DNA of 64,000 nucleotides from Desulfobacteraceae bacterium (GCA_041660385.1 JBAZWJ010000031.1:3137-67136), one strand, 5' to 3'; counted from the stretch's first letter, positions 25,851 to 64,000 are shown. The notes: generated by a model not told the origin, from the sequence alone. Numbers and translations: made by a program.

Positions 25851-25853
25851 TGT

Positions 25854-29519: not shown

Positions 29520-29541
29520 ATATTTCTTTTACCATGAAAAA

Positions 29542-29603: not shown

Positions 29604-29618
29604 GTGCTTTCATTAACT

Positions 29619-31800: not shown

Positions 31801-31803
31801 AAC

Positions 31804-34510: not shown

Positions 34511-34570
34511 GTATGTGAGCTTTTTGGATTAATTGAGTTTGTTGATATTTTTACAACCCAAGTAACCCGA

Positions 34571-35782: not shown

Positions 35783-35795
35783 GATTCACCTTAAT

Positions 35796-37031: not shown

Positions 37032-37034
37032 TCA

Positions 37035-38501: not shown

Positions 38502-38570
38502 ATAAGTATTTTATTCCTGGCTTCTATTTGAAAAGTTCAAAAAGTGGGTTCACCCAATCAATTATCAGGG

Positions 38571-40352: not shown

Positions 40353-40374
40353 TTACCTAACCTTTGCGATGCTA

Positions 40375-42916: not shown

Positions 42917-42941
42917 GGGGCTGAAAGCATCTGATTCATTA

Positions 42942-44998: not shown

Positions 44999-45033
44999 GT
45001 GCTAATTCCTTCACTATTGAGCAATATTAAAGG

Positions 45034-45597
45034 TCATTTATTAGTAACAATAAAATCTTGACTACCTTTAAAGTTGATTATCTTCGCAGGGATTCCAACG
45101 GCCACAGCATTGTCAGGGAGATCTATCGTTACGACAGAATTTGCACCTATGGCCACATTATCTCCGATGGTTATGCCACCAAATATTTTTGCTCCTGGGG
45201 CAATATAGACACGGTTACCAATGACGGGCGTTTTCTGAATTCCATTACGTCCTGCCTGACCTATCGTGTTTTCATTGGAAATATTACAGTATTCACCCAT
45301 CACGGTTTTTGAACCAAGAATTATGCAGCCGAAATGACCAATGTACAATCCTTTACCGATTCGGGCTGTAAAAGGCAAATCAATACCGGTCATTATTTCT
45401 ACCATTTTTTTAAAAACAGTTAAAAAAGGCAGAATAATTCTCGGCCATATTTGGGATTTATTCTGATGGCACCATGATCCAGCACGGTAGACTATCGTTG
45501 CCCAGATCCCTTGCGTTAGTATAATCTTTTTTGTTTTAGATAAAAGTCCATCATTTTTTCTAAAATATCTTTTGATGTCTTCCCGAAGATAATCCAC
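45034..45597 (-). CDS. Left-handed beta-helix (hexapeptide) acyltransferase, CysE/WcaB-like
   Basis: 'IGKGLYIGHFGCIILG', 'VIGNRVYIAPGAKIFGGITIGDNVAIGANSVV', 'AVGIPAKII'. Confidence 0.75.
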   Translation of the reverse strand: MDYLREDIKRYFRKNDGLLSKTKKIILTQGIWATIVYRAGSWCHQNKSQIWPRIILPFLTVFKKMVEIMTGIDLPFTARIGKGLYIGHFGCIILGSKTVMGEYCNISNENTIGQAGRNGIQKTPVIGNRVYIAPGAKIFGGITIGDNVAIGANSVVTIDLPDNAVAVGIPAKIINFKGSQDFIVTNK

Positions 45598-45613
45598 TCT
45601 GATATTCTCAATC

Positions 45614-46708: not shown

Positions 46709-46727
46709 TTTAAATTCCATAATTTTA

Positions 46728-47849: not shown

Positions 47850-47892
47850 TCTGACACTTCAAATTATTTCACCAGCTGAACTTCTCAGCTTC

Positions 47893-49120: not shown

Positions 49121-49765
49121 CTATTTAATAATGAATTCATGGAATACCGGATAAAAAGCTTCGATAAATTGAAACGTCTTATCGTTGTAATATTTAATGG
49201 GCTTGGATCCAATGGGAATTGTTATCCTGACAAAGGCATTATCTTCACCCTGTCCCCTAAGTTTTTTCCATAATAATGCGATTTTTTGAGAAAATGTATT
49301 GGCGTTTGTTTTGTCGTGTGCCTGAAACCAGTATGTGATCAGCTCTTTTTGCTGGCCAAGTTCTCCTGTCATCACGGAATATGAAACTCGCTGGCCTGAC
49401 GCCAGGACACGCTGGTTGGTCTGTGAATTTGATATTTTCCAGCCCTGGCCGGGGAAGCACACCATGGGATCATGGGCTGCACCTATTTTTTTTGCTGAAT
49501 AATAGTAGCCGACGTACAGCATGATAGTGTCCTCGCCATCAGAATAGCTCTGATTGATATAATCATCCAGGTCAAGCGCATCTATTATGGGCTGGTCCAA
49601 CTTTGAGACATTGTCCCTTTCCCATCCGTTGAATGAAGTCAGAGCCGACGCGAGTTTCGTCTGTTTGTGCTGAGTGTGGGAAACCGGCTTGAAAAGAACA
49701 AGGATACCGGCAAGGGCCATGCATACGATCAATAATACTATTCTTTTACTGCTGAGTTGTCCCAA
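49121..49765 (-). CDS. EpsI-family exosortase-associated protein
   Basis: N-terminal TM anchor, 'FNGWERDN...LDLDDYINQSY......MLYVGYYYS....GAAHDPMVCFPGQGW', the EpsI pattern. Overlaps the exosortase gene by 28 nt. Confidence 0.7.
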   Translation of the reverse strand: MGQLSSKRIVLLIVCMALAGILVLFKPVSHTQHKQTKLASALTSFNGWERDNVSKLDQPIIDALDLDDYINQSYSDGEDTIMLYVGYYYSAKKIGAAHDPMVCFPGQGWKISNSQTNQRVLASGQRVSYSVMTGELGQQKELITYWFQAHDKTNANTFSQKIALLWKKLRGQGEDNAFVRITIPIGSKPIKYYNDKTFQFIEAFYPVFHEFIIK

Positions 49766-50583
49766 TGTGATAATACCTTTTTTATAATTGCGATAAGGAG
49801 CAATGCCAGACCAAAAACAACCAGGCCGAAAATGCTGTGGATTTTATCTTCAGTAAGATCAAAATCCATATAATGAAATGCCAGGATCATCAACAGAACC
49901 CTGAAAATATTAACAAAAACCGCCACAGGAAAACCTGATAAAAAAAGAATGGTTCTCAATATATTTGATGAAAGGGTCAGGTATCCAAAAACAGCGGACA
50001 GTGTCAGGAGCGATACCAGAGAACGGAGACCGCTGCACGCCTGGACAACCTGAAGTGTTCGATGGGGAAGGTGGATGACATTCCCTTCTCTTAAAAGCGG
50101 GATATCAAAAAGACCGGAAATAAACACACTGGCTTGAGTTACAAATAACTGGAGAGGAATGGTCAGAGCGGAATAAATTTGTGACGGAATCGGTACGATG
50201 AAGAAAAGAAAACAAAGGGGAAAAATCAGTTCTTTGACAAAACCATAGCCCAGAATATAAATCACGGTGCTGAAAAGAAACAAAACCATGGACACAGGGG
50301 CCAGGGTCTGTATGTCAGCATATTTCGCAAGCAGATAAAGGATAAGGGACATAATAACAAAAAGCAGCCCGCTTTTTTCCGGCTTCACAGGTATTTTGGC
50401 AATATGATCTTTTTTCTGCCACATAATGTAAAGACTGATGGGAAAAATAAACAATCCGTAGGAATGATCATCTGAATTCATCCAGAGCTGAATGAGACTT
50501 TTCAGTACAGGAAAAAATAAAATAATGAATCCCGCAGTAAAAATACCAAGCAGTATTTTATTATCACTTATAATTTTATTCAC
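49738..50583 (-). CDS. Exosortase (EpsH/Xrt family)
   Basis: 8-TM protein; 'WMNSDDHSYGLFIFPISLY', conserved Cys motif 'VQACSGLRSL', downstream Arg/His-containing helices. GTG start at 50583. A PEP-CTERM substrate is encoded at 18442. Confidence 0.85.
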   Translation of the reverse strand: MNKIISDNKILLGIFTAGFIILFFPVLKSLIQLWMNSDDHSYGLFIFPISLYIMWQKKDHIAKIPVKPEKSGLLFVIMSLILYLLAKYADIQTLAPVSMVLFLFSTVIYILGYGFVKELIFPLCFLFFIVPIPSQIYSALTIPLQLFVTQASVFISGLFDIPLLREGNVIHLPHRTLQVVQACSGLRSLVSLLTLSAVFGYLTLSSNILRTILFLSGFPVAVFVNIFRVLLMILAFHYMDFDLTEDKIHSIFGLVVFGLALLLIAIIKKVLSHWDNSAVKE

Positions 50584-50670
50584 AGATCTTTAATTGCCTT
50601 TAAGTTATTGAAAATCTTACTTTTCAATTATGGTTTGTATTGAATACTTTTTAGAATCAGCTTTCTTCAA

Positions 50671-53600
50671 TTACTTATAATATTTTTGCATATATTCATA
50701 GAATTTTTCCACGAGAAGCGGTTCCTCCATAAACTCCATATGTTTGGCTGGGATATCAATCACGTCAATATTACCAACAATATAGTTGTTCCACCCTTTA
50801 TCCATATCAATTTTCAAACCATGATGTGCTTGTGGCTCAGCAAATAGAACCATATCTCCGTCATATCGTCTTGGAGTATAAGCCAGTACAGGCTTCCAGT
50901 GTTTCTGTTCAACATACCAGTATCTCAATTTGTGTGGGATCGGTCTCTGTATGGAATGATAAAAATTACAGAGACAGAACTTCAGCTGAATAACTATTTT
51001 CCTTTGAATGCTTTCAAGTATCTTCTTGAATTGCTCCTTGAAAGTGGTGCCATGTCGCTTGCTGAAAATCAAAGCATTAAATTTATTAACCATTTTGGTC
51101 ACTATCGTATCATTTGAAAATGACGGGTTGTTCTTAAAATAAATTGGGGCAAAGGTATCAAACATGGCCAGAAGTGCAATATCCTGGCCTTCATGTTTCA
51201 ACTGCTGGGCAACCTCATAGGCAATGAACCCGCCCATGGACCCTCCAGCCAGATAATAAGGCCCTGATGGCTGAATCATTTTCATTTCCGCAATATAGTG
51301 ACCTGCCATTTCCTCTATGGATGAATAGGGTTCAGACAGGCCATCAAGGCCTCGTGCCTGTAGTCCATATACCGGTTGATCAGCGTCAAGTCCTGATGCA
51401 AGAGGATAATAATTAAGGACATTACCTCCAATAGCGTGCATGCAGAATATGGGCGTTTTACTTCCGTTTGGCTTAATGGCCACAAGATGGGACCAGCCTG
51501 ATTTCTCGTCCTTTTCGTTTTCTGATGATGCAAATAAAAAGCGATTCAGAAATTTATTGCCATTCTTTTTATCTTTAATTCTGCCGCCTGATGCTTCAAT
51601 GGTCTTCGAAAGTTCGCGGACTGTCGGTGATTTAAAAATCTCCGCCAGAGGCAGATTAATCCCTGTGAGATTATAAATTTCGGAGAATATGCGAACAGAC
51701 AGTATTGAATGGCCTCCGACTTCAAAAAAGTTGTCATTGACCCCGATGTATTCAAGGCCGATGATATCCAGCCAGATTTTTAAAATCCTCGTTTCGAGTT
51801 CGGTGATCTGCGTATTCTGCTGGACTTCGGTAATAAGCGTTGACACGGGCTTCGGAAGACGATTCCTGTCGATCTTTCCGTTAGATGTCATCGGCATGGA
51901 ATCAAGGTTTACAAAATGTTGAGGAATCATGTATTCAGGCAGTCTATCTTTCAAGTACAGCCGCAAGTCGCTGTCTTTTTCTTGAACACCCGTACGTGAA
52001 ATAATATAGGCAACAAGCCTTTTATCATCAGGGACATCCTCTCTGACCAGTGTTACGCATTGTTTGATTCCCTTGTGTTCAGCCAGAGCCGCTTCAATTT
52101 CACCCAGTTCTATTCTGAACCCGCGCAGCTTGACCTGATGATCCATACGCCCGAGATAGCAGATAGTCCCATCGGGAAAATATTTTGCAAGATCACCTGT
52201 CCTGTATAACCTGGATGCTGGATCATCGCTCATGAAATCAGATACGAATTTTTCCGATGTCAGTTCCGCACGGTTGAGATACCCTCTGGCAAGTCCGTGG
52301 CCTCCAATATAAAGCTCACCTGGAACGCCAATAGGCACTGGATTTTGGAACGGATCAACAAGAAATATGCGGGTATTTGAAATCGGCTTCCCGATTGTGG
52401 CCATCTCGTTTTTCTGTCTTAAAGCACAGGTCGAATACGTTGTGTCTTCCGATGGCCCATAAAGATCGAAAACACGTTGAACTGTTTTTATATTGTACAA
52501 CCTGTCAACGATTTCCTGTTTAAGGGGTTCGCCTGCCAGGTTGATGGTCGTGACATTCGCGGGGATAGCTTTGAGCTGAAGCAGTTCAACAATTGCTGAA
52601 GGAACCGTATTGATGAGCCTGACCTCTGATACGTCAGGCAGGTTTTTCAATCCCATGGCATTATCCGCCAGAACAATCTTGCCTCCCGAACACAAGGGCA
52701 AGAAAATCTCAAAAACAGATAAATCAAAGCAGATGGAGGTGGAAGCAAGCATCCCACCAATTTCATCTCCGGTGAACACTGTCCTTGCCCAGGCGATAAG
52801 TGCGATCGCACTGCGATGTTCAATTGCAACGCCTTTGGGAACGCCAGTTGAACCTGAAGTGTAGATTATATAAGCAAGATTTTTCTGGGTTGCTCCTGAA
52901 GAAGGAGACTCCATGCATGCCTTTGAGTGTTTTTCTCCAAGGGCCTCCAGCGTTATCAATCTTGCGGTTGAATCGGAAAACAGCGTTTCAAATTTCTTCT
53001 GGGTGATGATTACACGACTGCACGAATCGGACATCATGAATTTGAGGCGTTCAACGGGATAACCCGGGTCAAGAGGCACATACGCACCGCCCGCTTTAAG
53101 CACAGCCAGCATTCCAACAATCATGTCCATGGATCTTTCAACACAGATCCCCACCAGAACATCCGGCTCCACACCCATCTGGATCAACTCAATGGCAAGC
53201 TGATTTGAGCGCTGTTTCAGTTCGTTGAAACTCATCCTGTCATGGTTATGAACAATCGCAACGGCATCAGGTGTTTTTTCAGCCTGCATGTCAAACATAT
53301 CATGAATACAGACATCGCCAGGATAATCCAGATGATTTTCATTCCAGTCGATGAGCATCAGCCTTTTTTCCGGTTCTGTCAGCAAGCCGATTTTCTGAAT
53401 AGGCAATGTCGGGTTTTCAACCATACTTTGGAGTAATGTCTGAAAATGGTCGACCATGCGCTGAATGGTTTCATCTTTGAATATTTCATCACTGTATTCA
53501 AAGACGCCTCGCAGTTCATCACGTTCCTCCCACATGTACAGCGATAGCTCAAATTCCGTTGCCCCTCTATCCATGACAACAGGGAAAAAATTCAATTCCG

Positions 53601-56600
53601 CAGAGTCATCTGAGGGTAAAGGAAAATTCTGGAATGCAAACATGACCTGGAAGATCGGATGGTGATTGAGAGAACGATCCGGCTGTAGAATTTCAACAAG
53701 TTTCTCGAAAGGAAGATCTTTATTGGACAAGGCGTCCAGAATCAGTTGATGAACCTGTTTGACCAAATCCTTGAAACCCGTTGTTTCGGACAGTTCAAGG
53801 CGAATCGGCAGCATGTTGATAAAAAAACCTATCAAACCTTCAATTTCAACCCTGTCGCGATTCGCGTAGGGTGTGCCCACGACCACACCATTCTGGTTTG
53901 AATATTTGCATAGAAGTGAAAAATAGGCTGAAAGCAGGACGGTGTAAACCGTTGTGTGTTCCTGTTTTGCCATATTCTGAATACTTCGAGTCAATTCAGC
54001 TGAAAGACATATCGCCTGATGCCTGCCCGTATATCGGGGCGACATGGGCCGAGGATAATCCGCTGGCAACTGGATAACAGGAAGTTCTCCTTTTAACCGT
54101 TCTTTCCAGTATTTTTTTTGTTCATTCAGATCGTTATTTATAAGCCATTTTTTCTGCCAAATGGCATAATCCGCATACTGGATTGGGAGTTTTTCCAATG
54201 GAGATGGTCGGCCTTCTTTAAAAGCGTGATAAAGAACCGATAACTCTTTCATCCATACACCCATGGACCATCCGTCGGCGATAATATGATGCAGGATGAT
54301 TGCAAAAATATGCTCTGTTTTTCCAGTTTGAAGGATGCAGACTCTAAGCAGCGGGCCGTTCTCCAAATCAAAAAGAACAGGGGCTTTTCTGGCGATCAAC
54401 CGGCGGGCATATTCTTCGCCTTGCTCCCCATCTTTATCTGTGCAGACTATCTTTTCGATTTTTATCGATTGCAGCGAAACACGCTCTATCGCCGGGCGAC
54501 CATCCCTTTTTATAAATACGGTTCTCAACACATCGTGACGGGCCAGGATATGATCAAAAGCTTTCTGAAGTATTTCCTCATTCAGATCTCCTGAAAGTTT
54601 CACGGCTTGAACGATATTGTAAGCGGGGCTATGGGATTCCAGCTGATTAATGAACCATAAACGCTGCTGGGCCAGCGAAAGTTGCAAACCTTCATTTTCA
54701 GACTCAGGCACAATGGTCTCAATTTTTTTACGTTCAGCACCGGAACTCTGCTCCCTGCTCAGGTAATCGGCAAGGCCTTGAATCGTAGGGAGTTCAAATA
54801 TTTTGCGAATGGACAGATCAGATCCTGACTGTTCACGGATGCGAGATATGATCTGGGCAGCGATAAGCGAGTCACCACCCAATTCGAAAAAGCTGTCCTG
54901 AACACCTATCTGATCGATCCCCAGGACGTCCTGCCAGATGCGAACAAGCATATGTTCCATTTCACAGGAAGGCCGGTCATAATCACTTGAAACACTTGAA
55001 GGTCGGGAATACAAGGACGACGCTTCGATATGAACCACTTCGGGTCTTTCATGGCCTTCGTTTGTCACACTGGAAGAAATCTGATAGCCCTTCTGGGCTG
55101 TGGGTTCAATCCAGAAACGCTGTCTTTGAAAAGGATAACCTGGCAAGGGAACCCGCCCGCACCCCTTCCCTTTGTTAAATGCACTCCAGTCAATATGAAC
55201 ACCTGTAATCCATAACTGTGAAAGTGTCTTATAAAGAAAGGCCCCATCATGACCCTGACTTTGCGGGTGCTTAACTGAAGAATAAATCATAACGGATTTT
55301 TCTTTATCAACGATGTTCTGCCTTGAAAGCGTTGTCAACGTCTGACCGGGACCGACTTCGAGAAGAACACAGGGCTCTTCGATAAGGGTCTGGATACCTT
55401 TTGAAAAACGTACGGTTTGACGAAGGTGACGCGCCCAGTATTCCGGGTTAGTGGCATCACGCTCTGTAATCCATGTTCCCGTTACATTGGAAATGAAAGG
55501 AATTTGAGGATTATTCAACGGCACTGTCTTTAAATATTCTCTCAACGGATCAATGGCACCTTCCATCATCTGGGAATGGAAGGCGTGGGAGGTATGAAGA
55601 ACCGTGCATTGTACTTTCTTGCTGTTCAATGTCTCATGAAGCCTGGCAATGTCATCTGAAGGGCCTGAGACCACACATCGGCCCGGAGAATTGATAACGG
55701 CCAGGGAAACGGGGTTGTCCACAAAAGGCAGAATGTCCTTTTCAGAAAGGGCAACAGCGAGCATGTCACCATGCGGCTGCTGCTGCATAAGCCTGCCCCT
55801 TTCTGCAACAAGTTTTAAAGCATCTTCAAGGGTAAAAACACCGGATAAACAGGCTGCCACATATTCACCCAGGCTGTGACCAATCATCGCATGGGGATAA
55901 ATTCCCCATTCCATAAACAACCGTGCAAGGGAGTACTCCAGTGCAAACAACGCGGGCTGAGCGATTTCCGTTTCATTCAGTCTGTTTTGAGAATATGTGC
56001 CATCATTATCTTCAGGATAAATCAATGCCGTAAGATCACAGCCGATAACCGGTGCAAGTATCTCAGAACAGGCCATCATATGCTGTTTGAAAATCGGCTC
56101 CGTTTCAAAAAGATCCCTGGCCATGTTGACATACTGTGCCCCCTGCCCCGTAAACATAAAGGCAGCCTTTCTGTTGTCGGCTAAACATGATCCAGAAATG
56201 AATTTTCCCGGATCAGTTGAAGAAAAGGCGTTTACAGCATCGGCCACGTTTTTGCACACACATGCTGATCTGTGCCGAAATGCTTTTCTTCCTATCTGAA
56301 GAGTGTAAGCCACATCACCGGCATTCTGAGCAGGGTTTTCTGAAAGGTAGCTGCACAAACGAGAGCGCCTTTGCTCAAGTGCTTGCGCCGATTGAGCTGA
56401 AAGCGTGAAAAGATACCATGGCTGACCTTGTCTATTTTTAAGCTCTTCTCTGGGAACCTCTTCAAGAATGACATGAGCATTGGTTCCCCCCACACCAAAG
56501 GAGCTGACACCGGCCCTTCTCGGCGACATGGAATCATCCCATGAACGCAAGGCTTTATTTACATAAAAAGGGCTTCCCTCCATATTCAACTCAGGATTGA

Positions 56601-59600
56601 CAGTTGTCACATTCAGGGTGGGGGGCAGGACGCCATGCTTGACCATGAGACTCGTTTTGATAAGACCAGCCACACCAGCCGCCACATCCAGATGCCCGAT
56701 GTTGGACTTTAAAGAACCAATGGCGCAAAAAGACTTTTTATCTGTTTTACTTCTGAAAGCCTGGGTGAGAGCTTTAACTTCAATCGGGTCACCCAGTGGT
56801 GTTCCTGTCCCGTGGGCCTCGACATAACCTATGGTTGCAGGATCAACGCGGGACATGTTCTGGGCCATGGCAATAACTTCAGTCTGCCCCTGGACACTGG
56901 GCGCTGTATATCCCACTTTCACATTGCCGTCATTGTTCAATGCTGCCCCTTTTATGACAGCATAAATATGATCGTGGTCTTCTATGGCATCTTCCAGGCG
57001 TTTTAAAAGAACAACACCTGCACCCTCCCCTAAAAGCGTTCCTGATGCTTTACTGTCAAAGGGTCTGCAATACCCATCATCAGAGAAAATTTCTCCTTCA
57101 TGGTGGAGATAGCCTCTTAACCGGGGGGCCTGAAGAGATACTCCCCCGCCTATGGCCATATCGCATTGATATGTCAAAAGGCTCTGATATGCAAGCTGGA
57201 CTGCGACAAGTGAAGTCGAGCATGCGGTTTGAACCGAAAGACTCGGGCCTTTAAGGCCGAGCTTGTAGGAAACCCTCGTTGAAAGAAAGTCTTTATCATT
57301 ACCGATGAATGTCTGAAAATTGAGAACAGACTCCATCAATTCTGGGCGTTCAAGCAGATTTTTAATAAGGTAGTTGTTCATGCCGCATCCAGCAAAAACT
57401 CCCACTGTGCCTGTATAATGATCTGGAACATAACCCGCATCTTCAAAAGCATCCCAGGCGCATTCAAGAAATATTCTCTGCTGGGGATCAATCTTTTCAG
57501 CTTCCCGAGGTGTATACCCAAAAAAACCTGCGTCGAAACAATCTGAATTATTTAATACAGGGCTTCTTTTAACATATTTCGGATTTTTTATTAAATATTC
57601 CGGGACACCTGATTTCAGAAGTTCTTCGTCGGAAAAATCAGTGATAGACTCAATGCCGTTTACAATATTACGCCAGAAAAGGGATATATCATCGGCTCCT
57701 GGAAATCGACCGGCCATTCCAATAATGGCCACATCTGCTGATCTGTTTCCTGGCTGTGCCCATGTATCTCTTACCATACAGGGAATTTTACTCGTAAGAT
57801 CATGAGGTTCAGAAAGACCAGTGTGTTTAGCCTGAATGATATAATTCGACATCATTTGTATGGTGGGATTCTCGAACATATCGACAATCGATATCTTCAT
57901 TCCATACATTTTTGACAGGCGAATCACAATGCCCGGCATAAGAATCGAACGTCCGCCAATATCAAAAAAGTTATCATTCATGCCGATATCATCAAAACAT
58001 AGAACCTCAGCCCAGACAGAAGCCACATTTTTTTCAGTCTGGGAAACAGGAAAGACAACTGACTGATCTGATCGCAACTGTACGGATGCCTGTTTCTTCA
58101 TTCTCTGATCCACGGCGGCCATAATGCTTTTCAGACTTGAAAACGTGTCGGCGATTTCCTGCATGACAAGGGCGTTTGCCAAAGAAACACCCGTGTCTTT
58201 ATCAGTTGTTTTTCGGACTTCCCCGTCTTCGGATGTTTTTTCTGTTGCTGAAGAAGGACTAAAAGAGGCTTCTGAGGCGATTTGAGAGGGTAAAAGAAAA
58301 AACAGCCCTTCGCCTTCCTGTTGTTTGTATTCCTCGCCAAGGGATAAAAGGAAATTTAATGCTGGCTGATTTTTATTTGTGGGCGAATAATTTAAGCGGA
58401 CAGATTTCAAACCTCGATCTATGGCGTTTCTTCCAAGACGATTAAGCAATGCATGTTCAACACCCTTTCCAAGTGCACGGCAGCTCAAAAGAAAGGTATC
58501 AACACTTATCTGATCTTTTTGCTTTTCGTAAATAACCAGGCCGACCAAGCCATAATCACCAAATTTATCCGATACTTCAGCGACCAGACAGACATGATTT
58601 TCAGACAGCTTGAGCCTTGAAATTTCAGATTCATTTCTTCTTATCGTTGTGAGATTGAACTGGTTTGTTCTCAGAGTCAACTGGGAGACTCTCTGAATCT
58701 GAGCATCTTTTATCTCAGATATTGAAACATTCAAATCAAGATTTTTCAGAAATTCATCAAATGTCGTTGAAGATTTCAGCAAGCTGCTTCTTTCTTTCTC
58801 CTTGCGGTAAAGATCAACTCTCTCACGATCTTCTTTTGTCAGTTTAAGATGGTCAAAGGCCCAGATATGTTTCGTAAAATCTTTTATCTTTTCAGGATCA
58901 GACGGAAGCTGAAGCGTGAGGACTTCCGGGCAGTTCGCTCGAACTTCCGCACATTCCACAGGATTGTCATCGATAAAGATAAAGCTGTCCAGCCCAATAT
59001 TGATCTCCTCTGCAAGTTCCGCAATATTCTGTGATTTCGGAGACCAGTTAATCTTACTGTATGAGATATGATTTCTTCGAAGAATCATTTCGGGATTTTT
59101 ATCGAGAACATCCAGCACATCTTCTTCTGAATTTTTACTACACAGGCAAATCAGCGTTCCTGCTTCATGCTGGGATACCATAAGTTCCTGAAGCATTTTT
59201 CTGGCTGGATCAACCGTGACACGTAGGGGACCATCTTCGCCGACCACGCCTTTCCAGAGGGTCTGGTCGCAATCGAGAACAATCGCTTTATAAGGTTTTC
59301 CGAGAATGGAAAAAGATTTTCTTGCAATGATGTATGAAAGAGCTGCAAAGAATTCATCGGTATAAGGGATATGACCGGCATCCAGACCAAGGGGTTCGTC
59401 GTACTGTTCAACACCCATTGGGCCCAGGATTTCACGGCTGCTGACAGGGTAGATATTCCCAATGCTGTTCAGAGAAAGAGCCAAGTCATTCTCAATTCGA
59501 TTCAACAAGGGATTTTCTGCCAGAGCAGGAGAAATCGGGCAGAAACAAATCAGAACCGGAACACTGGACTCTGCAACAAAAGCCTGAACTGCCCCTAAGA

Positions 59601-61464
59601 ATTCATCTTTATTCTGCTCAAGAGTCTGTTTGACTTTACCATCGTCAACCACGGCATGTGATATGCCGGGTATGTCCTTAATCCAGTCCTCAAGGCGGAC
59701 CAGAATAACATTGACCCCCTTGATATTTTTTCTGAACATGCTGCTCGGGTCCAGGAGCTGCTGAAAAATCTGATTGTATGGAGCGAACTGCACGGATTTT
59801 TTAAAAGCAAGCTTGTCAACCCAGAAATCCAGAGGGTCTTTCAGTAAATCCGCTGTATAAGTCGCCGCAATAGCAATACATTGTTTTTCATCAAAACCCG
59901 TTTCTTCCTGTGATTGAATATCTTTTTCAATTTTTACAGGAAAATCAGAAACAAGCGTTTCAGGCTCATCAATGGCACGGACCAAATATTCACAGAACGA
60001 TTCTGTAAAAACAGCAATTGTCTTTTCAGAAAATATATCGGTGTTGTATTTAAAAGCACAGGCGAATTTTTCTCCCGTGTTAATCATTTCGAGAGTCAGG
60101 TCAAATTGACCTTCCTCCTGATCGATGGGGAATGGCAGTATTTTCAAACCACCAAAATCAACAGGAGTGTCAAAGGAAGCCCCGTGGAGAAATTGCGACG
60201 CCGAACCGAGCGTTTTTTGATCAAGTAAATTGAACATGGCCTGAAAAATGGGGGACCTTGAAGGATCCCTCGCCGGCATTAAATCTTCAACCAGAACAGG
60301 AAACGGATAATCCTGATGGTCCAGGGCAGTCAGAACAACCCGCCTTGTTTTAAAAAGATGGTCCCTGAATGTTTGAGAATCGGAAAACCTGGCTCTCATC
60401 ACAACCGAATTGATAAAATTCCCGCAGATGTTTTTGAATTCATTTCGTCCACGACCTATCACCGGCGATCCAACAAGGATATCCTCGCTTCTGCTGTAGC
60501 GCATCAGAAAAAGCTGAAACAATGCAAGAAAAAAGGTGTACTTTGTAACCGATTCCTGATGACAGAACACTTCGATTTTTTTGAAAAGTTCATCACTGAA
60601 ATTAAAATATAATGAACTTCCTTTATAACTTGGCGCATGGGGTCTGTTAAAGTCAGAAGGCAGGTCAAGTGCCGGAAGGCTTCCTCCAAGCTGAGAAACC
60701 CAGTACGTTTTATGTCTCTGCCCAACCTCTTTTTTGAGCATATCATTCTGCCAGTAAGTAAAATCCTTATACTTACCGTTTATTTCGGGTAGCTGAATTT
60801 TATTTCCGCTGCTCTCCGAAGCATATAACAAACTCAAATCGTTAAGAAGCATTCCAAGAGAATAAGCATCACAGGCAATGTGATGAATGGTTATCATCAA
60901 AATATAATCGTCTGTTTTTATTTTAAATAAATGCAGTCGGAATACGGAATCATTTTCAAGGTCAAAGGGTTTGGAATAATACAATTCAAGTCTGGATTTC
61001 AATTCATGTTCCGGCCAGCCGGAAGCATCGATTGGGTATAGTACAGGTTTTAAATTTTTATTTACGATCATGAATGACTGATCACCTGCAGTGCCCACTC
61101 CATAGGCATAGGTTGATCGAAGAATACCATGCCTGTCAACAAGCATGTTTACCGCACTTGATAATGCCTCCACATTTAATTCAGAAACAACCCTGCAGGA
61201 AGCAGCGATATGATAGCACGATGAGGCCGGAGCAATCTGATGCATGAACCAGAGTGATTGCTGATTATATGACAAGAGTTCTTTTACCCTGTCAGCATCA
61301 TCCTCAGCTGAGAGATAACGGATGATATCCGATTTATTCAGAGAAAGTGTTTGATGAAGATCAGACGTCAATGCGCCTTTTGGCGCCCGGTATTTCAATT
61401 TTCCGGAATCAACCCACAAACTGATATGCCGTTCCTGTAAGCTTTCAAGAATCTGTGAAATCAT
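50671..61464 (-). CDS. Hybrid PKS/NRPS megasynthase: dock-C-FkbH-ACP-KS-AT-ACP-C-A-PCP-TE
   Basis: Single uninterrupted ORF. Domain motifs are listed in the sub-features below. Start set at ATG 61464 (MISQILESL...), which shares one base with the upstream TGA (TGATG); the ORF track begins 7 codons earlier at 61485. Confidence 0.9.
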   Translation of the reverse strand: MISQILESLQERHISLWVDSGKLKYRAPKGALTSDLHQTLSLNKSDIIRYLSAEDDADRVKELLSYNQQSLWFMHQIAPASSCYHIAASCRVVSELNVEALSSAVNMLVDRHGILRSTYAYGVGTAGDQSFMIVNKNLKPVLYPIDASGWPEHELKSRLELYYSKPFDLENDSVFRLHLFKIKTDDYILMITIHHIACDAYSLGMLLNDLSLLYASESSGNKIQLPEINGKYKDFTYWQNDMLKKEVGQRHKTYWVSQLGGSLPALDLPSDFNRPHAPSYKGSSLYFNFSDELFKKIEVFCHQESVTKYTFFLALFQLFLMRYSRSEDILVGSPVIGRGRNEFKNICGNFINSVVMRARFSDSQTFRDHLFKTRRVVLTALDHQDYPFPVLVEDLMPARDPSRSPIFQAMFNLLDQKTLGSASQFLHGASFDTPVDFGGLKILPFPIDQEEGQFDLTLEMINTGEKFACAFKYNTDIFSEKTIAVFTESFCEYLVRAIDEPETLVSDFPVKIEKDIQSQEETGFDEKQCIAIAATYTADLLKDPLDFWVDKLAFKKSVQFAPYNQIFQQLLDPSSMFRKNIKGVNVILVRLEDWIKDIPGISHAVVDDGKVKQTLEQNKDEFLGAVQAFVAESSVPVLICFCPISPALAENPLLNRIENDLALSLNSIGNIYPVSSREILGPMGVEQYDEPLGLDAGHIPYTDEFFAALSYIIARKSFSILGKPYKAIVLDCDQTLWKGVVGEDGPLRVTVDPARKMLQELMVSQHEAGTLICLCSKNSEEDVLDVLDKNPEMILRRNHISYSKINWSPKSQNIAELAEEINIGLDSFIFIDDNPVECAEVRANCPEVLTLQLPSDPEKIKDFTKHIWAFDHLKLTKEDRERVDLYRKEKERSSLLKSSTTFDEFLKNLDLNVSISEIKDAQIQRVSQLTLRTNQFNLTTIRRNESEISRLKLSENHVCLVAEVSDKFGDYGLVGLVIYEKQKDQISVDTFLLSCRALGKGVEHALLNRLGRNAIDRGLKSVRLNYSPTNKNQPALNFLLSLGEEYKQQEGEGLFFLLPSQIASEASFSPSSATEKTSEDGEVRKTTDKDTGVSLANALVMQEIADTFSSLKSIMAAVDQRMKKQASVQLRSDQSVVFPVSQTEKNVASVWAEVLCFDDIGMNDNFFDIGGRSILMPGIVIRLSKMYGMKISIVDMFENPTIQMMSNYIIQAKHTGLSEPHDLTSKIPCMVRDTWAQPGNRSADVAIIGMAGRFPGADDISLFWRNIVNGIESITDFSDEELLKSGVPEYLIKNPKYVKRSPVLNNSDCFDAGFFGYTPREAEKIDPQQRIFLECAWDAFEDAGYVPDHYTGTVGVFAGCGMNNYLIKNLLERPELMESVLNFQTFIGNDKDFLSTRVSYKLGLKGPSLSVQTACSTSLVAVQLAYQSLLTYQCDMAIGGGVSLQAPRLRGYLHHEGEIFSDDGYCRPFDSKASGTLLGEGAGVVLLKRLEDAIEDHDHIYAVIKGAALNNDGNVKVGYTAPSVQGQTEVIAMAQNMSRVDPATIGYVEAHGTGTPLGDPIEVKALTQAFRSKTDKKSFCAIGSLKSNIGHLDVAAGVAGLIKTSLMVKHGVLPPTLNVTTVNPELNMEGSPFYVNKALRSWDDSMSPRRAGVSSFGVGGTNAHVILEEVPREELKNRQGQPWYLFTLSAQSAQALEQRRSRLCSYLSENPAQNAGDVAYTLQIGRKAFRHRSACVCKNVADAVNAFSSTDPGKFISGSCLADNRKAAFMFTGQGAQYVNMARDLFETEPIFKQHMMACSEILAPVIGCDLTALIYPEDNDGTYSQNRLNETEIAQPALFALEYSLARLFMEWGIYPHAMIGHSLGEYVAACLSGVFTLEDALKLVAERGRLMQQQPHGDMLAVALSEKDILPFVDNPVSLAVINSPGRCVVSGPSDDIARLHETLNSKKVQCTVLHTSHAFHSQMMEGAIDPLREYLKTVPLNNPQIPFISNVTGTWITERDATNPEYWARHLRQTVRFSKGIQTLIEEPCVLLEVGPGQTLTTLSRQNIVDKEKSVMIYSSVKHPQSQGHDGAFLYKTLSQLWITGVHIDWSAFNKGKGCGRVPLPGYPFQRQRFWIEPTAQKGYQISSSVTNEGHERPEVVHIEASSLYSRPSSVSSDYDRPSCEMEHMLVRIWQDVLGIDQIGVQDSFFELGGDSLIAAQIISRIREQSGSDLSIRKIFELPTIQGLADYLSREQSSGAERKKIETIVPESENEGLQLSLAQQRLWFINQLESHSPAYNIVQAVKLSGDLNEEILQKAFDHILARHDVLRTVFIKRDGRPAIERVSLQSIKIEKIVCTDKDGEQGEEYARRLIARKAPVLFDLENGPLLRVCILQTGKTEHIFAIILHHIIADGWSMGVWMKELSVLYHAFKEGRPSPLEKLPIQYADYAIWQKKWLINNDLNEQKKYWKERLKGELPVIQLPADYPRPMSPRYTGRHQAICLSAELTRSIQNMAKQEHTTVYTVLLSAYFSLLCKYSNQNGVVVGTPYANRDRVEIEGLIGFFINMLPIRLELSETTGFKDLVKQVHQLILDALSNKDLPFEKLVEILQPDRSLNHHPIFQVMFAFQNFPLPSDDSAELNFFPVVMDRGATEFELSLYMWEERDELRGVFEYSDEIFKDETIQRMVDHFQTLLQSMVENPTLPIQKIGLLTEPEKRLMLIDWNENHLDYPGDVCIHDMFDMQAEKTPDAVAIVHNHDRMSFNELKQRSNQLAIELIQMGVEPDVLVGICVERSMDMIVGMLAVLKAGGAYVPLDPGYPVERLKFMMSDSCSRVIITQKKFETLFSDSTARLITLEALGEKHSKACMESPSSGATQKNLAYIIYTSGSTGVPKGVAIEHRSAIALIAWARTVFTGDEIGGMLASTSICFDLSVFEIFLPLCSGGKIVLADNAMGLKNLPDVSEVRLINTVPSAIVELLQLKAIPANVTTINLAGEPLKQEIVDRLYNIKTVQRVFDLYGPSEDTTYSTCALRQKNEMATIGKPISNTRIFLVDPFQNPVPIGVPGELYIGGHGLARGYLNRAELTSEKFVSDFMSDDPASRLYRTGDLAKYFPDGTICYLGRMDHQVKLRGFRIELGEIEAALAEHKGIKQCVTLVREDVPDDKRLVAYIISRTGVQEKDSDLRLYLKDRLPEYMIPQHFVNLDSMPMTSNGKIDRNRLPKPVSTLITEVQQNTQITELETRILKIWLDIIGLEYIGVNDNFFEVGGHSILSVRIFSEIYNLTGINLPLAEIFKSPTVRELSKTIEASGGRIKDKKNGNKFLNRFLFASSENEKDEKSGWSHLVAIKPNGSKTPIFCMHAIGGNVLNYYPLASGLDADQPVYGLQARGLDGLSEPYSSIEEMAGHYIAEMKMIQPSGPYYLAGGSMGGFIAYEVAQQLKHEGQDIALLAMFDTFAPIYFKNNPSFSNDTIVTKMVNKFNALIFSKRHGTTFKEQFKKILESIQRKIVIQLKFCLCNFYHSIQRPIPHKLRYWYVEQKHWKPVLAYTPRRYDGDMVLFAEPQAHHGLKIDMDKGWNNYIVGNIDVIDIPAKHMEFMEEPLLVEKFYEYMQKYYK
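50674..51480 (-). other. Domain: thioesterase (alpha/beta hydrolase)
   Basis: 'PIFCMHAIGGNVLNYYPLA', nucleophile elbow 'GGSMGG' (Ser codon 51238-51240), C-terminal 'IPAKHMEFM' (putative His). Confidence 0.8.
51586..51798 (-). other. Domain: peptidyl carrier protein
   Basis: 'NFFEVGGHSILSVRI', Ser codon 51706-51708. Confidence 0.85.
51855..53283 (-). other. Domain: adenylation domain (hand-read code DLFNNALTYK)
   Basis: 'LKAGGAYVPLDP', 'LAYIIYTSGSTGVPKG', 'FDLSVFEIF', 'NLAGEPL', 'LYGPSEDTTYST', 'GELYIGGHGLARGY', 'YRTGDLAKY', 'KLRGFRIELGEIE', 'NGKIDR' (Lys codon 51874-51876). Confidence 0.85.
53380..54705 (-). other. Domain: condensation domain C2 (canonical HHxxxDG)
   Basis: 'LSLAQQRLWFINQ', 'HHIIADGWS' (His codons 54286-54291), 'YADYAIWQ', 'IGFFINMLPIR'. 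No DxxxxD cyclisation motif. Confidence 0.85.
54736..54963 (-). other. Domain: carrier protein 2 (ACP)
   Basis: 'SFFELGGDSLIAAQI', Ser codon 54868-54870. Confidence 0.85.
55320..56166 (-). other. Domain: acyltransferase (malonyl-type motifs)
   Basis: 'FMFTGQGAQY', 'GHSLGEY' (Ser codon 55873-55875), 'HAFHS' (the HAFH motif usually indicates malonyl-CoA). Confidence 0.85.
56445..57735 (-). other. Domain: ketosynthase
   Basis: 'DVAIIGMAGRFPGA', active-site 'TACSTSLVAV' (Cys codon 57220-57222), 'EAHGTGTPLGDPIE', 'KSNIGHLDVAAG', 'GGTNAHVILEE'. Confidence 0.9.
57811..58038 (-). other. Domain: carrier protein 1 (ACP)
   Basis: 'NFFDIGGRSILMPGIV', Ser codon at 57946-57948. Confidence 0.75.
58290..59868 (-). 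other. Domain: FkbH-like (HAD subfamily IIIC + GNAT-like tail) glyceryl-loading domain
   Basis: 'CIAIAATYTADLL' N-region, HAD motif I 'AIVLDCDQTLWKGVVGEDG' (Asp codon 59272-59274), 'ICLCSKN', 'FIFIDDNPVE', 'FGDYGLVGLVIY...FLLSCRALGKGVE'. Confidence 0.75.
59941..61278 (-). other. Domain: condensation domain C1 (His motif HHIACDA)
   Basis: 'LSYNQQSLWFMHQ', 'HHIACDAYS' (His codons 60880-60885), 'YKDFTYWQ', 'GNFINSVVMR'. G of HHxxxDG is replaced by A. Confidence 0.8.
61300..61464 (-). other. Domain: TubC-type N-terminal docking domain
   Basis: 'ISQILESLQERHISLWVDSGKLKYRAPKGALTSDLHQTLSLNKSDIIRYL' matches the '...GV.LW.eG..LryrAPkGaLt..L...L..hK..il..L' pattern (from memory). Confidence 0.6.
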
Positions 61465-62780
61465 CAAATTTCTCCCTCTTCCCATTCCACAGGTTCTGTT
61501 TTTGAAATATGTGATACCATCACCGTGTTCGATTCCTGGTCTGCAATTCCATGCGTCATTTTCAAAAAATCTTCATCATGATGAGTTGTTGCGTTACTAC
61601 TTAAATATTCGATTTTTTCAGCAAGGTCTGCGATGCTCTGACCCTCAAAAAAATCCATGAGAGACAAAAGAATTCCCAGTTCCGATTCAATTGTACTGAT
61701 CACGTCCACAGCCATCAACGAATCAAGACCCAGATCAATAAAACGCGAACCAGGTAGTATATCATTTTCTTCCATGCGAAATGCTTGAGCAATTAATCTG
61801 CGGATATAATCCACAATATCCGTCCTGCTTTTCATGGATTCAATACGTTTAGCCGTCAAATCTGTTTTTTCAGGGGAATTCGTGGCATCATTTGAAATAA
61901 GATGAATCGAATCTATTGAGCCCTGTCTTTCTTTCTTATTTTCAATTGATCTGCAACCAGCATTTGCGGTTTCGATCTTTTCACCCCCGGCAACAAAAAG
62001 CTGACGATAAATTGCGTGGTCATCCGCTTTCAAAACCTGATGCCATTTTACAGCGAGCTTATCTAAGATACGCGAATCTAAAAATCCATCTTTCACCAGT
62101 TTGGCTGGAATACCCACACCCTCTGATTTTAAAAAAATGTCATCTCCAACAAGACTGTTATGGGCGCAAATAATTTCCATATCAACATTCTTAAAACCGC
62201 ATTGTTTTAATAAATTAGGCAATTGCCGTCCGATTTTCGGGTTTCCACCTTCACTGATTCTTGACTTGCAGTACGCTTCGTATAATGTGTTTATTTCAGG
62301 AATTCCCGGAAAGGTTTTTAAATGCATTTCAAAATCGTTATCTACGAAAACCGCAATACCGCCGGGCTTGAGCACACGATTAATTTCCCAGACAGCCTCT
62401 TCCGGTTCCGGCAGATGTTCCAGAACAAGTCGCGTAATGACAAAATCAAAACAGTTATCTTTGAAGCCCAGTTGTGTTACTGACTGCTGCGAAACTTTTA
62501 TTTTTCTCTTTTCAGCAACACATTTGAGAATGGCAACGAGATATGAATCAATTTCAATGGCTGTTGAAGTGCAGTTTGGGAATTCATTCAAAATCTTTTC
62601 TGTGACATATCCAGGACCGCTGCCACATTCAAGTATGGACATGCCGTCGGTCAATCCAAATTGCCTGTAACACCTTATTTCCTTTTCCCAAAACAAATCA
62701 ACCTGAGCTTTAAGGCGATCGACTTCTCCTTGGACGTCAGTTGAAAATTGCTTAATTTTATATGATCTTTTATGAGTCAT
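61464..62780 (-). CDS. Class I SAM-dependent methyltransferase fused to a C-terminal acyl carrier protein domain
   Basis: Motif I 'ILECGSGPGYVT', post-I 'AIEID', 'FDFVITRLVLEHL', 'LKPGGIAVFVD'. C-terminus 'FIDLGLDSLMAVDVISTIESELG' (Ser codon 61719-61721). Confidence 0.8.
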   Translation of the reverse strand: MTHKRSYKIKQFSTDVQGEVDRLKAQVDLFWEKEIRCYRQFGLTDGMSILECGSGPGYVTEKILNEFPNCTSTAIEIDSYLVAILKCVAEKRKIKVSQQSVTQLGFKDNCFDFVITRLVLEHLPEPEEAVWEINRVLKPGGIAVFVDNDFEMHLKTFPGIPEINTLYEAYCKSRISEGGNPKIGRQLPNLLKQCGFKNVDMEIICAHNSLVGDDIFLKSEGVGIPAKLVKDGFLDSRILDKLAVKWHQVLKADDHAIYRQLFVAGGEKIETANAGCRSIENKKERQGSIDSIHLISNDATNSPEKTDLTAKRIESMKSRTDIVDYIRRLIAQAFRMEENDILPGSRFIDLGLDSLMAVDVISTIESELGILLSLMDFFEGQSIADLAEKIEYLSSNATTHHDEDFLKMTHGIADQESNTVMVSHISKTEPVEWEEGEI

Positions 62781-62843
62781 TTATTCCCTTTATTTATTAT
62801 TCATAATAAGAAAAGCATATAAAAGTGAACATCCAGGACAATT

Positions 62844-63515
62844 CTATTTACTTGTTCCAAGGGCATCAACAAGCTTTTTTGACCATAACTCATATCCAGC
62901 CTTATTTGGAAAAGCACCATTTCGATCAGAATATTCCAGAATATAATGGTAGTCTTTCGTCAATATATCGTTCAGTTCTAAAAATTTAATGGAATTAACA
63001 GTGCAAAAAATTTTCAAATTTTTGTTTAATTTTAAAACACTGACAGCATACTCTTCCATATCAAATTTATCAGGAACAGCAATCAAGGCAGATTGTACAA
63101 TTATGGTAATACCTTTATCTCTTAATTGTTCGATAACATACTTATATTTTTCAAAAACACGTTCAGGTTTGTCACCAAGATAAATATCAAAACCATTTGC
63201 AGTGATGATGCATATTTCAGGCTTTGCCCTGATTATATCATTCAGATGTTTGTTTACAATGTCGATGCTGCCGCCCCGGCTTCCAATAAACAGGATATCA
63301 TCGTTCGATAATAACTCTCTCCATTTATTATTAATTAAAGAATCACCTGTCATGACCATATATTTTTTTGGGGCTGGCAAAAGACTTTTAACACCAAAGT
63401 ATTTTTTCAATACTTTAGCAGGGACATGATAGTGGAAAAGCATATAGCAGAATATCAAAAGAAATAAGATATTTAACGATATTGAAACGTAGACAAGGCA
63501 GGATTTTATATTCAT
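62844..63515 (-). CDS. Membrane-anchored SGNH/GDSL-like protein
   Basis: N-terminal TM helix, 'VMTGDSLINN' (block I GDS), 'GSRGG' (block II-like). The block V region 'SDRNGAFPNKAGY' lacks an obvious His, so catalytic competence is uncertain. Confidence 0.5.
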   Translation of the reverse strand: MNIKSCLVYVSISLNILFLLIFCYMLFHYHVPAKVLKKYFGVKSLLPAPKKYMVMTGDSLINNKWRELLSNDDILFIGSRGGSIDIVNKHLNDIIRAKPEICIITANGFDIYLGDKPERVFEKYKYVIEQLRDKGITIIVQSALIAVPDKFDMEEYAVSVLKLNKNLKIFCTVNSIKFLELNDILTKDYHYILEYSDRNGAFPNKAGYELWSKKLVDALGTSK

Positions 63516-63544
63516 ATGCTATGCAACTTTAAAAAATAAAAGCA

Positions 63545-64000
63545 TTACAGATTCATTGTTTTAAGTAAGGGGATCAATTCATTCTTCCACACTTGATACC
63601 CTTTATCACTCATGTGGACGCCGTCAGACGAATAATCCATGATCAAATGACCTGATTTGGAAAGTTTAGAATTAAGATCAAGAAACAGTATACCCTTCTC
63701 TTTTGAGTATTGATTCAGCATTGAATTCAGCATATCGACTTCTTTGTTCTGCTCTTTATAAAATAATTTCACAGGTGCAACATATATAAGGGATTGGATG
63801 ACAATCTTCATATTTTTTTTCAGCATTTTATCTATCAGTATTTTGTAATCATCAAACGTTTTTTCAGGTGTTTTCATCCAGAACATATCGTTTATGCCGA
63901 TCATGACCAAGCATAATTCCGGCTTTAACTCAGATGCGAAGTCAACACGCTCAAGGATGTCTTCAATCTGCCCTCCACGAATCGATACCATGTCGTTTCG
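63545..64000 (-). CDS. SGNH/GDSL hydrolase, 5' end beyond the window
   Basis: 'IRGGQIEDI' (block II), 'MIGINDM' (block III GxND), 'DGVHMSDKGY' (block V DxxH). The frame is still open at nt 64000, so the true start (and block I) lies outside the window. Confidence 0.65.
   Translation of the reverse strand, partial: RNDMVSIRGGQIEDILERVDFASELKPELCLVMIGINDMFWMKTPEKTFDDYKILIDKMLKKNMKIVIQSLIYVAPVKLFYKEQNKEVDMLNSMLNQYSKEKGILFLDLNSKLSKSGHLIMDYSSDGVHMSDKGYQVWKNELIPLLKTMNL

Follow-up and report, generated by a model that had tools for sequence, protein, structure and literature searches.

Why does an assembly line of the polyketide synthase/nonribosomal peptide synthetase (PKS/NRPS) type stand at the head of an operon for protein sorting and exopolysaccharide (EPS) synthesis? 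The question is raised by a stretch of 64,000 nucleotides from a Desulfobacteraceae bacterium (GCA_041660385.1, JBAZWJ010000031.1:3137-67136), hereafter called the window. Its minus strand encodes, in this order, two SGNH-type proteins (SGNH1, which is partial, and SGNH2), a methyltransferase fused to an acyl carrier protein (MT-ACP), a hybrid synthetase with an FkbH domain, an exosortase, the exosortase partner EpsI, and a run of polysaccharide genes; this order and its coordinates had been described in an earlier interpretation made without database searches (the sequence-only reading), and both were borne out. Exosortases were predicted in 2006 as sorting transpeptidases. Judged from gene context, the thiotemplate genes are a real but optional add-on to the matrix machinery in several uncultured sulfate-reducer relatives, and by the comparisons given below they fill a variable slot between a DUF3473-type deacetylase and the exosortase in an XrtA-like, Wzx/Wzy-type EPS operon of Desulfobacterales. 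Tentatively, and at just short of an even chance, we propose that SGNH1, SGNH2, MT-ACP and the synthetase form a four-gene accessory cassette, made together with the operon, whose product would modify the matrix of EPS and PEP-CTERM proteins.

We compared seven distinct full-length orthologue loci with readable downstream DNA, the window included. In five of them (the window, L001, L002 with its duplicate L086, L003 and L162) the exosortase-EpsI pair lies at most 1 kb downstream of the synthetase gene, and the chance adjacency that the sequence-only reading had asked about is not borne out. The pair follows directly in L001 and L002, the synthetases of which are 82% and 63% identical to that of the window; it overlaps the synthetase gene in L003 (59%) and is separated from it by one deacetylase gene in L162 (58%). 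In L004 (64%) and L161 (61%) the synthetase is followed by a phosphopantetheinyl transferase (PPTase) gene, and then by Wzx, sulfotransferase, glycosyltransferase (GT) and Wzy_C genes in the former and by EPS genes in the latter. A shortened orthologue (L005/L006) stands behind genes for a TIGR03098-like ligase, a DUF3473 deacetylase, a FemAB-like protein, DegT, GT2 and a PPTase. Every instance in Desulfobacterota sits among EPS genes (GTs, Wzx, Wzy_C, AsnB, FemAB-like, DegT and DUF3473 deacetylase). The exosortases linked to synthetases are 93, 72, 69, 60, 43 and 28% identical to that of the window; the full-length synthetase orthologues as a whole are 58–82% identical to the window's. The synthetase and exosortase phylogenies are not congruent and, because exosortase identities of 28–93% stand against 59–82% for the synthetases, the cassette and the exosortase genes have, by this measure, different histories. 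Since the junction nonetheless recurs in independent assemblies, the adjacency goes beyond chance; it was retained or re-created on several occasions, an argument for selection.

A broader survey covered 155 FkbH loci, 80 from genomes of many phyla and 75 from metagenomes, the latter retrieved with an FkbH-carrier protein profile; the genome scan covered species representatives, and the window's own genome was not among them. Exosortase profiles matched in L009 and L086 only, as well as in the separately fetched L001–L003. The 80 genome loci mostly have other architectures and include an exosortase in L009 alone, and the 75 metagenome loci gave one orthologue, L086. In L009, from a metagenome-assembled genome (MAG) labelled Desulfosudis oleivorans, the exosortase gene lies 2 kb upstream of MT-ACP, the synthetase is split, and an AsnB gene is inserted.

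In the reverse direction, we analyzed the context of three among the exosortases most similar to that of the window. Upstream of one of them (L164, 70% identical) stands a third arrangement of a thiotemplate line, composed of a ketosynthase-acyltransferase-acyl carrier protein-thioesterase (KS-AT-ACP-TE) gene that overlaps the exosortase gene by 4 nt, a hydrolase gene, and two condensation-adenylation-peptidyl carrier protein (C-A-PCP) genes. The other two, L165 and L166 (59% and 57% by BLASTP; 56% and 57% in the alignment), share an operon frame of DUF3473 deacetylase, one variable gene, exosortase, EpsI, GT2, GT4 and AsnB, and contain no synthetase in that frame, although their exosortases are nearer to the window's than are some of those linked to a synthetase; this weighs against a dedicated partnership of synthetase and exosortase. 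The variable position is taken in L165 by a gene for a 277-aa product without assignment, and in L166 by one for a PEP-CTERM protein. Because exosortases 56–57% identical to that of the window share the frame without a synthetase, the cassette is best described as optional: on this comparison, exosortases of the window's clade work without it, and it is an accessory rather than a core partner.

Such a slot could also accommodate a mobile biosynthetic gene cluster (BGC) that landed in a permissive place and was inherited vertically, functionally unrelated to its neighbors. The differing contents of the slot between deacetylase and exosortase in L165 and L166, the insertion sequence (IS) elements near L003 and L165, and the concentration of most instances in one order are all in line with a neutral hitch-hiker. 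We nevertheless consider it highly improbable, because adjacency has been kept across 28–93% exosortase identity and three splits or orders of the line, overlaps of 1–4 nt are maintained with no terminator, and 0 of ~150 unrelated FkbH loci have an exosortase within 10 kb.

The gene junctions were analyzed in the window and its relatives. The MT-ACP stop and the synthetase start share the sequence TGATG at 61462-61466, as had been stated, and a stop/start overlap of 1–4 nt between these two genes recurs in L001, L002, L003, L004 and L161. From this ATG the synthetase comprises 3,597 aa, or 3,604 aa from an upstream ATG at 61485 (21 nt further); the database protein P0001 (3,597 aa, 100% identical) begins at the junction ATG. 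Downstream, the 87-nt gap between synthetase and exosortase and the 28-nt overlap between exosortase and EpsI were both verified. A sequence scan, in which overall site numbers equaled those of shuffled sequence, found no promoter-like or terminator-like site in the gap, and the gap folds no better than shuffles (z = +0.38); both results agree with the earlier remark that it holds no terminator. Its sequence is conserved only with the closest relative, and the corresponding junction measures 83 nt in L001, 99 nt in L002, and a 14-nt overlap in L003. From the overlaps and short gaps we infer that the cassette is read through with the EPS operon.

Pfam and NCBIfam scans give the domain order of the synthetase as dock-C-FkbH-CP-KS-AT-ACP-C-A-PCP-TE, where CP denotes a carrier protein, and agree with the earlier assignments (C, FkbH, KS, AT, A, carriers, TE, exosortase and EpsI); the same scans detected no ketoreductase (KR), dehydratase (DH) or enoylreductase (ER) domain in the synthetase. 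Motifs were aligned in seven full-length orthologues and one shortened one, with a mutual identity of 50–82%. Every catalytic motif is kept across the seven, and the four carrier serines are present. The FkbH motifs LDCDQT and LLSCR are invariant in all eight sequences and, together with the family match (Table 1), predict glycerate loading. In the first condensation domain (C1), A replaces G in the motif HHIACDA in seven of the eight. The PKS module carries TACSTS, EAHGTGT and KSNIGH in the KS, GHSLGE and HAFH in the AT, and LGGDSL in the ACP; we take HAFH to be malonyl-type. The terminal module has HHIIADG in its condensation domain (C2), an AMP-binding match in the A domain, GGHS in the PCP, and GGSMGG in the TE. 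By these signatures, and with four carrier domains in place, the assembly line is complete, as the sequence-only reading had claimed.

The A-domain specificity residues, DLFNNALTYK, are the same in seven of seven full-length orthologues, and all pocket positions shown in the alignment are identical to those of the McyA chain of PDB 8JBR (194 bits over 171 aa), a C-A-T construct that is presumably the alanine module of microcystin synthetase McyA. Because of this identity, we call the predicted substrate alanine. The glycerate/malonate/cysteine-derived product proposed earlier thus keeps its glycerate (FkbH) and its malonate (HAFH), whereas cysteine is rejected on the basis of the pocket. LgrA, the apparent best PDB match at 634 bits, was rejected as a close relative, as this score is the sum of two A domains of ~310–320 bits each. 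The best NCBIfam match of the TE is the Pks13 TE (100 bits); an NRPS TE (7crn) and EntF score comparably in the PDB, and the match was not retained as a hint of transfer to a sugar. The TE is, as far as these models tell, a generic type I thioesterase.

Read collinearly, the line is predicted to make an O-acyl-glyceryl unit extended by one unreduced malonate unit and amidated with alanine. The ACP of MT-ACP would carry a starter acyl group, probably malonate-derived and methylated, and its EWEEGEI tail would, on the basis of domain content and conservation, dock on the TubC_N domain of the synthetase. FkbH would load glycerate from phosphoglycerate, the established function of its family, onto CP1, and C1 would esterify the starter to glyceryl-S-CP1 by analogy with the vioprolide/corramycin type of initiation. 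One malonyl unit would be added by the KS and AT, the beta-keto group staying unreduced because KR, DH and ER are absent, and Ala by C2 and the alanine-type A domain. The TE would then release O-acyl-glyceryl-beta-ketoacyl-alanine by one of three routes: hydrolysis, Dieckmann cyclization that yields a tetramic acid, or transfer to an acceptor. Most likely, the product would become a non-sugar substituent or cap, placed on the exported polysaccharide/PEP-CTERM matrix or processed there. We place it there because the cassette lacks its own exporter and always comes with a membrane-anchored SGNH esterase/acyltransferase.

The initiation proposed here has a described counterpart. In the vioprolide, corramycin and cystomanamide lines, which start with fatty acyl-AMP ligase (FAAL)-ACP-C-FkbH(HAD)-T, the C domain esterifies the ACP-bound acyl group to glyceryl-S-T, and maturation of the acylated corramycin precursor has been ascribed, as a proposal, to a periplasmic hydrolase (PMC8949500, PMC10099666). 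The window shows the same order, ACP, C1, FkbH and CP1 (MT-ACP followed by dock-C1-FkbH-CP1), and its anchored SGNH pair parallels the periplasmic hydrolase. Unlike in those lines, the starter ACP is on a separate protein, where a class I methyltransferase is its fusion partner, the cassette lacks a FAAL, and hand-over would pass through a docking domain; moreover, the line is two extension modules long and lies inside an EPS operon, not in a peptide-antibiotic BGC.

MT-ACP carries the motif LGLDSL in its carrier domain and ends in a tail, (V/I)EWEEGE(I/L), that is conserved in nine Desulfobacterota relatives and is presumed to be the docking peptide for TubC_N. The MT-ACP family is small, with 124 representatives at E ≤ 1e-30. 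Besides P0473, its methyltransferase domain has about 40 homologues that stand alone; it is 53–57% identical to such 270-aa enzymes of Bacillus, Paenibacillus, Clostridium and Desulfocucumis, and in Paenibacillus tarimensis a homologue is fused to a FabD-type malonyl transferase. These homologues are weak hints of a methyltransferase family directed at malonyl-ACP, and of a malonyl-derived starter. BioC was rejected as an identity for the domain.

The SGNH1 orthologues (~220 aa) are anchored in the membrane by their N-terminus, retain both the GDS and the DGVH motif, and are conserved upstream of the synthetase in L001–L004. SGNH2 (L001 7752-8426; L003 8011-8667) is a degenerate paralogue with S (window), A (L001) or R (L003) at the nucleophile position and without the DxxH block, and may be a non-catalytic partner. 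The pair accompanies the synthetase in L001–L004 and is absent from the synthetase-free operons L165 and L166; MT-ACP is thus a constant companion of the synthetase, as is the SGNH pair within the full-length clade. Inspection of the flanks of L001–L003 showed no exporter, regulator or resistance gene with the cassette.

These companions also bear on a different fate of the product, namely that it is a free, diffusible metabolite that serves as a signal, metal binder or antimicrobial (a small 3-acyl-tetramic acid, for example, or an N-acyl-alanine), merely co-regulated with the matrix genes and chemically unconnected to EPS or exosortase. We regard this as unlikely, though well worth keeping in view: the TE is of the ordinary type I, a beta-ketoacyl-aminoacyl thioester is the classical tetramate precursor in PKS-NRPS chemistry, related lines occur outside exosortase contexts (L013, L167 and Fibrobacter, described below), and the cassette is optional for exosortase operons. 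Such a metabolite fits poorly with a cassette that brings no exporter, regulator or resistance gene, with conserved companions that are membrane-anchored SGNH proteins and polysaccharide genes, and with a coupling to or overlap with the exosortase gene that recurs across divergent lineages and module orders. The pattern of companions is circumstantial evidence that would fit a polymer-attached or polymer-processed product, and less so a free antibiotic-like metabolite.

The exosortase matches the family models TIGR02602 and PF09721 (Table 1) and TIGR04178 (59.7, cutoff 23), and has the Cys and Arg of the motif ACSGLR. Among the subtype models XrtA (TIGR03109) fits best, with a score of 203.7 that falls just short of its cutoff (208), the others being far below their own cutoffs. 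EpsI is assigned as its partner by the TIGR02914 score (Table 1) and the gene overlap. The PEP-CTERM protein, the presumed substrate, ends in ...VPEPATMFLFGLGLIGATISRRKVDI, comprising VPEP, a transmembrane segment and RRK; the identity given to it earlier stands, but not its start at 18442, as the longest open reading frame (ORF) begins at 18412. Two paralogues of this protein lie on the opposite strand, one of them split into two ORFs; both end ...LDFAPVI, without a PEP-CTERM tail, and transposase/IS fragments lie between the paralogues (region of 16546-17127(-), 19306-19776(-), 15595-16494(+) and 20287-21383(+)). The DNA that separates the EPS operon from the housekeeping genes therefore looks rearranged.

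In the most far-reaching explanation, the product would serve, as such or as a derivative, as acceptor of exosortase-cleaved PEP-CTERM proteins or as a lipid-like anchor for them. The last thiotemplate gene abuts the exosortase gene in six loci (exosortases 43–93% identical), twice with overlapping frames, the acceptor of the exosortase remains hypothetical (PMC12188702), and the line, too, would make an N-acyl amino acid. Other small-molecule enzymes are tied to the system (N-acyl amino acid synthases, as cited in a passage of PMC4897644; TIGR03098, TIGR03100 and TIGR03101), and in Fibrobacter, hydrolases distantly related to the XrtA-associated hydrolases 2 and 1 come after a related line. 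Even so, an acceptor or anchor role appears improbable to us: exosortases 56–57% identical share the operon frame without a cassette, most known XrtA loci are without such a line (our literature search found no pairing), two orthologues (L004 and L161) lack an adjacent exosortase, and the product predicted from domain content has no free amine to serve as transpeptidation nucleophile. In its specific form, with the glycerate-C2-alanine product or a carrier- or lipid-bound derivative as the physiological acceptor or anchor for the exosortase of this clade, we give it little credence. We think that the product is not a general co-substrate of the exosortase.

Several observations weigh against the proposal that the cassette modifies the EPS/PEP-CTERM matrix, and are gathered here. 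The downstream DNA of L004 (10 kb) and L161 (3 kb) shows no exosortase, the PPTase gene taking its place. No exosortase was found within 10 kb in L013 (a deltaproteobacterial MAG), in Desulfoluna spongiiphila (L167) or in four Fibrobacter loci, the last also showing no obvious EPS operon. The generic type I TE fits release of a free metabolite equally well as transfer. The substrate of the methyltransferase is unassignable from its relatives, as those with solved structures are only generic class I enzymes and the BioC model gives 44.6 bits (cutoff 185). Finally, the comparison comprises only about nine independent loci, all from MAGs or metagenomes, and several are close relatives, so that vertical inheritance explains part of the synteny. 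For the earlier reading, in which a dedicated metabolite is made together with the sorting enzyme, the conserved linkage to exosortase and EPS genes stands, whereas a dedicated partnership is weakened by L165, L166, L004, L161, L013, L167 and Fibrobacter.

The distant lines, in which the synthetase is split, differ in architecture. In L167 (LR701292.1 4548810-4570084), from a cultured species, an MT-ACP with the same docking tail precedes dock-C-AT-C-A-PCP and KS-AT-C-A...; FkbH is missing, and GT2, DUF218 and AsnB genes lie upstream. The Fibrobacter MAG locus L077 (18132-19742; similarly L072, L074 and L081) has an MT-ACP / C-FkbH / KS-AT-ACP-C-A-PCP line without a TE. In L077 two alpha/beta hydrolases come after the line; their best NCBIfam matches are the exosortase A system-associated hydrolase 2 (69.8 bits) and hydrolase 1 (50.9 bits), both below cutoff. 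These matches hint at a common ancestry of the release enzymes.

How does the arrangement relate to known exosortase systems? XrtA (EpsH)-EpsI loci with PEP-CTERM proteins and EPS genes were described by Haft et al. 2006 (PMC1569441). The window resembles them in its exosortase, EpsI, PEP-CTERM substrate, DUF3473 deacetylase, FemAB-like, AsnB-like, GT and Wzy_C genes, the same operon frame being found in the synthetase-free L165 and L166, and differs from them in the 14-kb thiotemplate cassette immediately upstream of the exosortase. As the sequence-only reading had mentioned, a small-molecule set is associated with XrtA: NCBIfam holds an exosortase A system-associated acyl-CoA ligase (TIGR03098) and two hydrolases (TIGR03100 and TIGR03101). 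An ACP and a pyridoxal phosphate-dependent decarboxylase are further members. The ligase/decarboxylase set is absent from the main text of that 2006 paper (PMC1569441). Ligases similar to TIGR03098, below its cutoff, lie upstream in L003 and L005. Like this set, the window combines carrier-protein and adenylate chemistry inside an exosortase locus. Its proteins are nevertheless below the cutoffs of the XrtA-associated models: the A domain scores 179.9 on TIGR03098 (cutoff 592.35), a generic match, and the TE region gives no hydr1/2_PEP match. Unlike the set, moreover, the window has a PKS/NRPS of many domains that includes a TE, and it showed no decarboxylase.

N-acyl amino acid synthases have likewise been linked to exosortase systems (Craig et al. 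2011, as cited in a passage of PMC4897644). They resemble the window in that its predicted product is an N-acyl-Ala genetically tied to an exosortase; they differ in being single GNAT/LuxI-like proteins that use fatty acyl-ACP, whereas the window would employ a thiotemplate line and a short acyl group derived from glycerate and malonate. Our literature search found no pairing of an exosortase with FkbH or PKS/NRPS, in agreement with the earlier remark that no described case was known to its author, and nothing for the specificity-code string; a 2025 survey of EPS clusters that discusses exosortases does not mention such a pairing. We therefore file the arrangement as a variant of already known exosortase-associated small-molecule biosynthesis, not as a new kind of system.

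Carrier-dependent decoration of surface polymers is known from D-alanylation by DltABCD, the tetronate side chain of Vibrio cholerae O1, and the RkpA PKS of Sinorhizobium (K-antigen). The window resembles these systems in having adenylation, carrier and PKS enzymes in a polysaccharide locus, and its operon encodes a DltB-class membrane-bound O-acyltransferase (MBOAT) and SGNH-fold proteins. Its MBOAT (25854-27326(-)) has DltB as best model, at 154 bits against a cutoff of 375. Unlike in Dlt, no stand-alone DltC-like carrier or DltA is present, and the MBOAT is 23 kb away. By analogy, the MBOAT, its GDSL-like neighbor and an alanine-activating A-PCP in one operon recall trans-membrane acylation of the Dlt type. 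An MBOAT near an FkbH line was seen only in L019/L104; the flanks of the window's relatives end before the MBOAT distance. In L019 (= L104, a Verrucomicrobia MAG; 2027-21097) an NRPS ending in C-FkbH-TE precedes genes for an ABC exporter, an unassigned protein of 385 aa, an MBOAT, a methyltransferase and a stand-alone FkbH. This MBOAT scores 258 bits against that of the window, and FkbH and this type of MBOAT thus occur together in another phylum.

The features of the window are collected in Table 1. From 23729 to 64000, 27 ORFs are co-directional on the minus strand, with a largest intergenic gap of 99 nt; downstream of EpsI we count 21 ORFs of at least 120 aa, to 23729, where 22 further genes had been given before. 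The polysaccharide block includes GT2 and GT4 copies, WecB, an acetyltransferase, ATP-grasp, FemAB-like and DegT enzymes, a Wzy_C/O-antigen-ligase-like protein, AsnB-like, Wzx, a PaaK-like ligase, deacetylases, and the MBOAT with its GDSL-like neighbor; amino-acid-handling enzymes (FemAB-like, ATP-grasp, AsnB-like and DegT) are numerous among them.

Table 1. Coordinates, strand and supporting evidence for the annotated features of the window
Feature	Position	Strand	Evidence
SGNH/GDSL hydrolase 1 (SGNH1), 3' part	63545..64000	-	PF13472 71.5 bits; frame open at window end
SGNH-like protein 2 (SGNH2), N-terminal transmembrane helix	62844..63515	-	PF13472 39.4 bits
MT-ACP, class I S-adenosylmethionine-dependent	61464..62780	-	Pfam methyltransferase models; PP-binding at 324-388
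Hybrid FkbH-PKS/NRPS synthetase	50671..61464 (longest ORF to 61485)	-	Pfam + NCBIfam domains
TubC_N docking domain	61309-61461	-	
C1 condensation domain, HHIACDA	59911-61284	-	
FkbH	58327-59289	-	TIGR01686 318.8 (cutoff 146.65)
CP1 carrier	about 57841-58038	-	
KS	56608-57735	-	
AT, HAFH	55306-56160	-	
ACP2	54760-54948	-	
C2 condensation domain, HHIIADG	53356-54687	-	
A domain, DLFNNALTYK	51874-53295	-	AMP-binding 247.9 bits
PCP3	about 51592-51792	-	
TE, GGSMGG	50674-51453	-	
AT-rich 87-nt spacer, synthetase stop to exosortase GTG	50584..50670	-	
Exosortase, XrtA-like	49738..50583	-	PF09721 223.7 bits; TIGR02602 226.3 (cutoff 105.55)
EpsI	49121..49765	-	TIGR02914 110.9 (cutoff 42.8); PF11984 137.3 bits
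21 Wzx/Wzy-type polysaccharide genes, co-directional	23729..49038	-	gaps ≤ 99 nt
PEP-CTERM protein, presumed exosortase substrate	18412..18996	+	TIGR02595 26.9 (cutoff 16)

Some genes of the block are unusual for an EPS operon: within 30658-37031(-), two of them (35796-37031 and 30658-31800) encode MslH/CapA-like proteins and one (34571-35782(-)) a repeat protein similar to LanC/terpene cyclases, and the product of 31804-33195(-) is an adenylating ligase of the PaaK/DVU_1553 kind, to which the loading of a carrier protein could fall. The distal operon end (24702-28396(-)) encodes a PgaB-like polysaccharide deacetylase, the MBOAT, and a 382-aa neighbor with weak GDSL similarity. Housekeeping genes (rpoD, dnaG, hisB and ispD) fill the left third of the window, where a YcaO domain fused to TPR repeats (12872-14719(+)), beside hisB, has no relation to the cassette. 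The GC content of the synthetase gene (0.45–0.47) is close to that of the housekeeping part (0.43–0.47), and that of the EPS and SGNH genes is lower (0.30–0.43); by composition, the polysaccharide genes, rather than the synthetase, look foreign or fast-exchanging.

Because the line is collinear, its product can be predicted with an uncertainty of only a few atoms, as an acyl-O-glycerate joined to one malonate unit and to alanine, and small-molecule genes recur beside exosortases, as ligase/ACP/hydrolase sets and, according to the passage cited above, as N-acyl amino acid synthases. A non-sugar decoration built by a PKS/NRPS would be unusual even if it were no more than a polysaccharide substituent; it would originate in relatives of anaerobic sulfate reducers, the secondary metabolism of which is little studied, and would imply that thiotemplate cassettes can plug into Wzx/Wzy operons. 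If the product were instead the acceptor, it would be the first exosortase partner with a chemistry predictable from sequence, and would provide a mechanistic tie to the N-acyl amino acid synthases and the exosortase-associated ligase and hydrolase genes.

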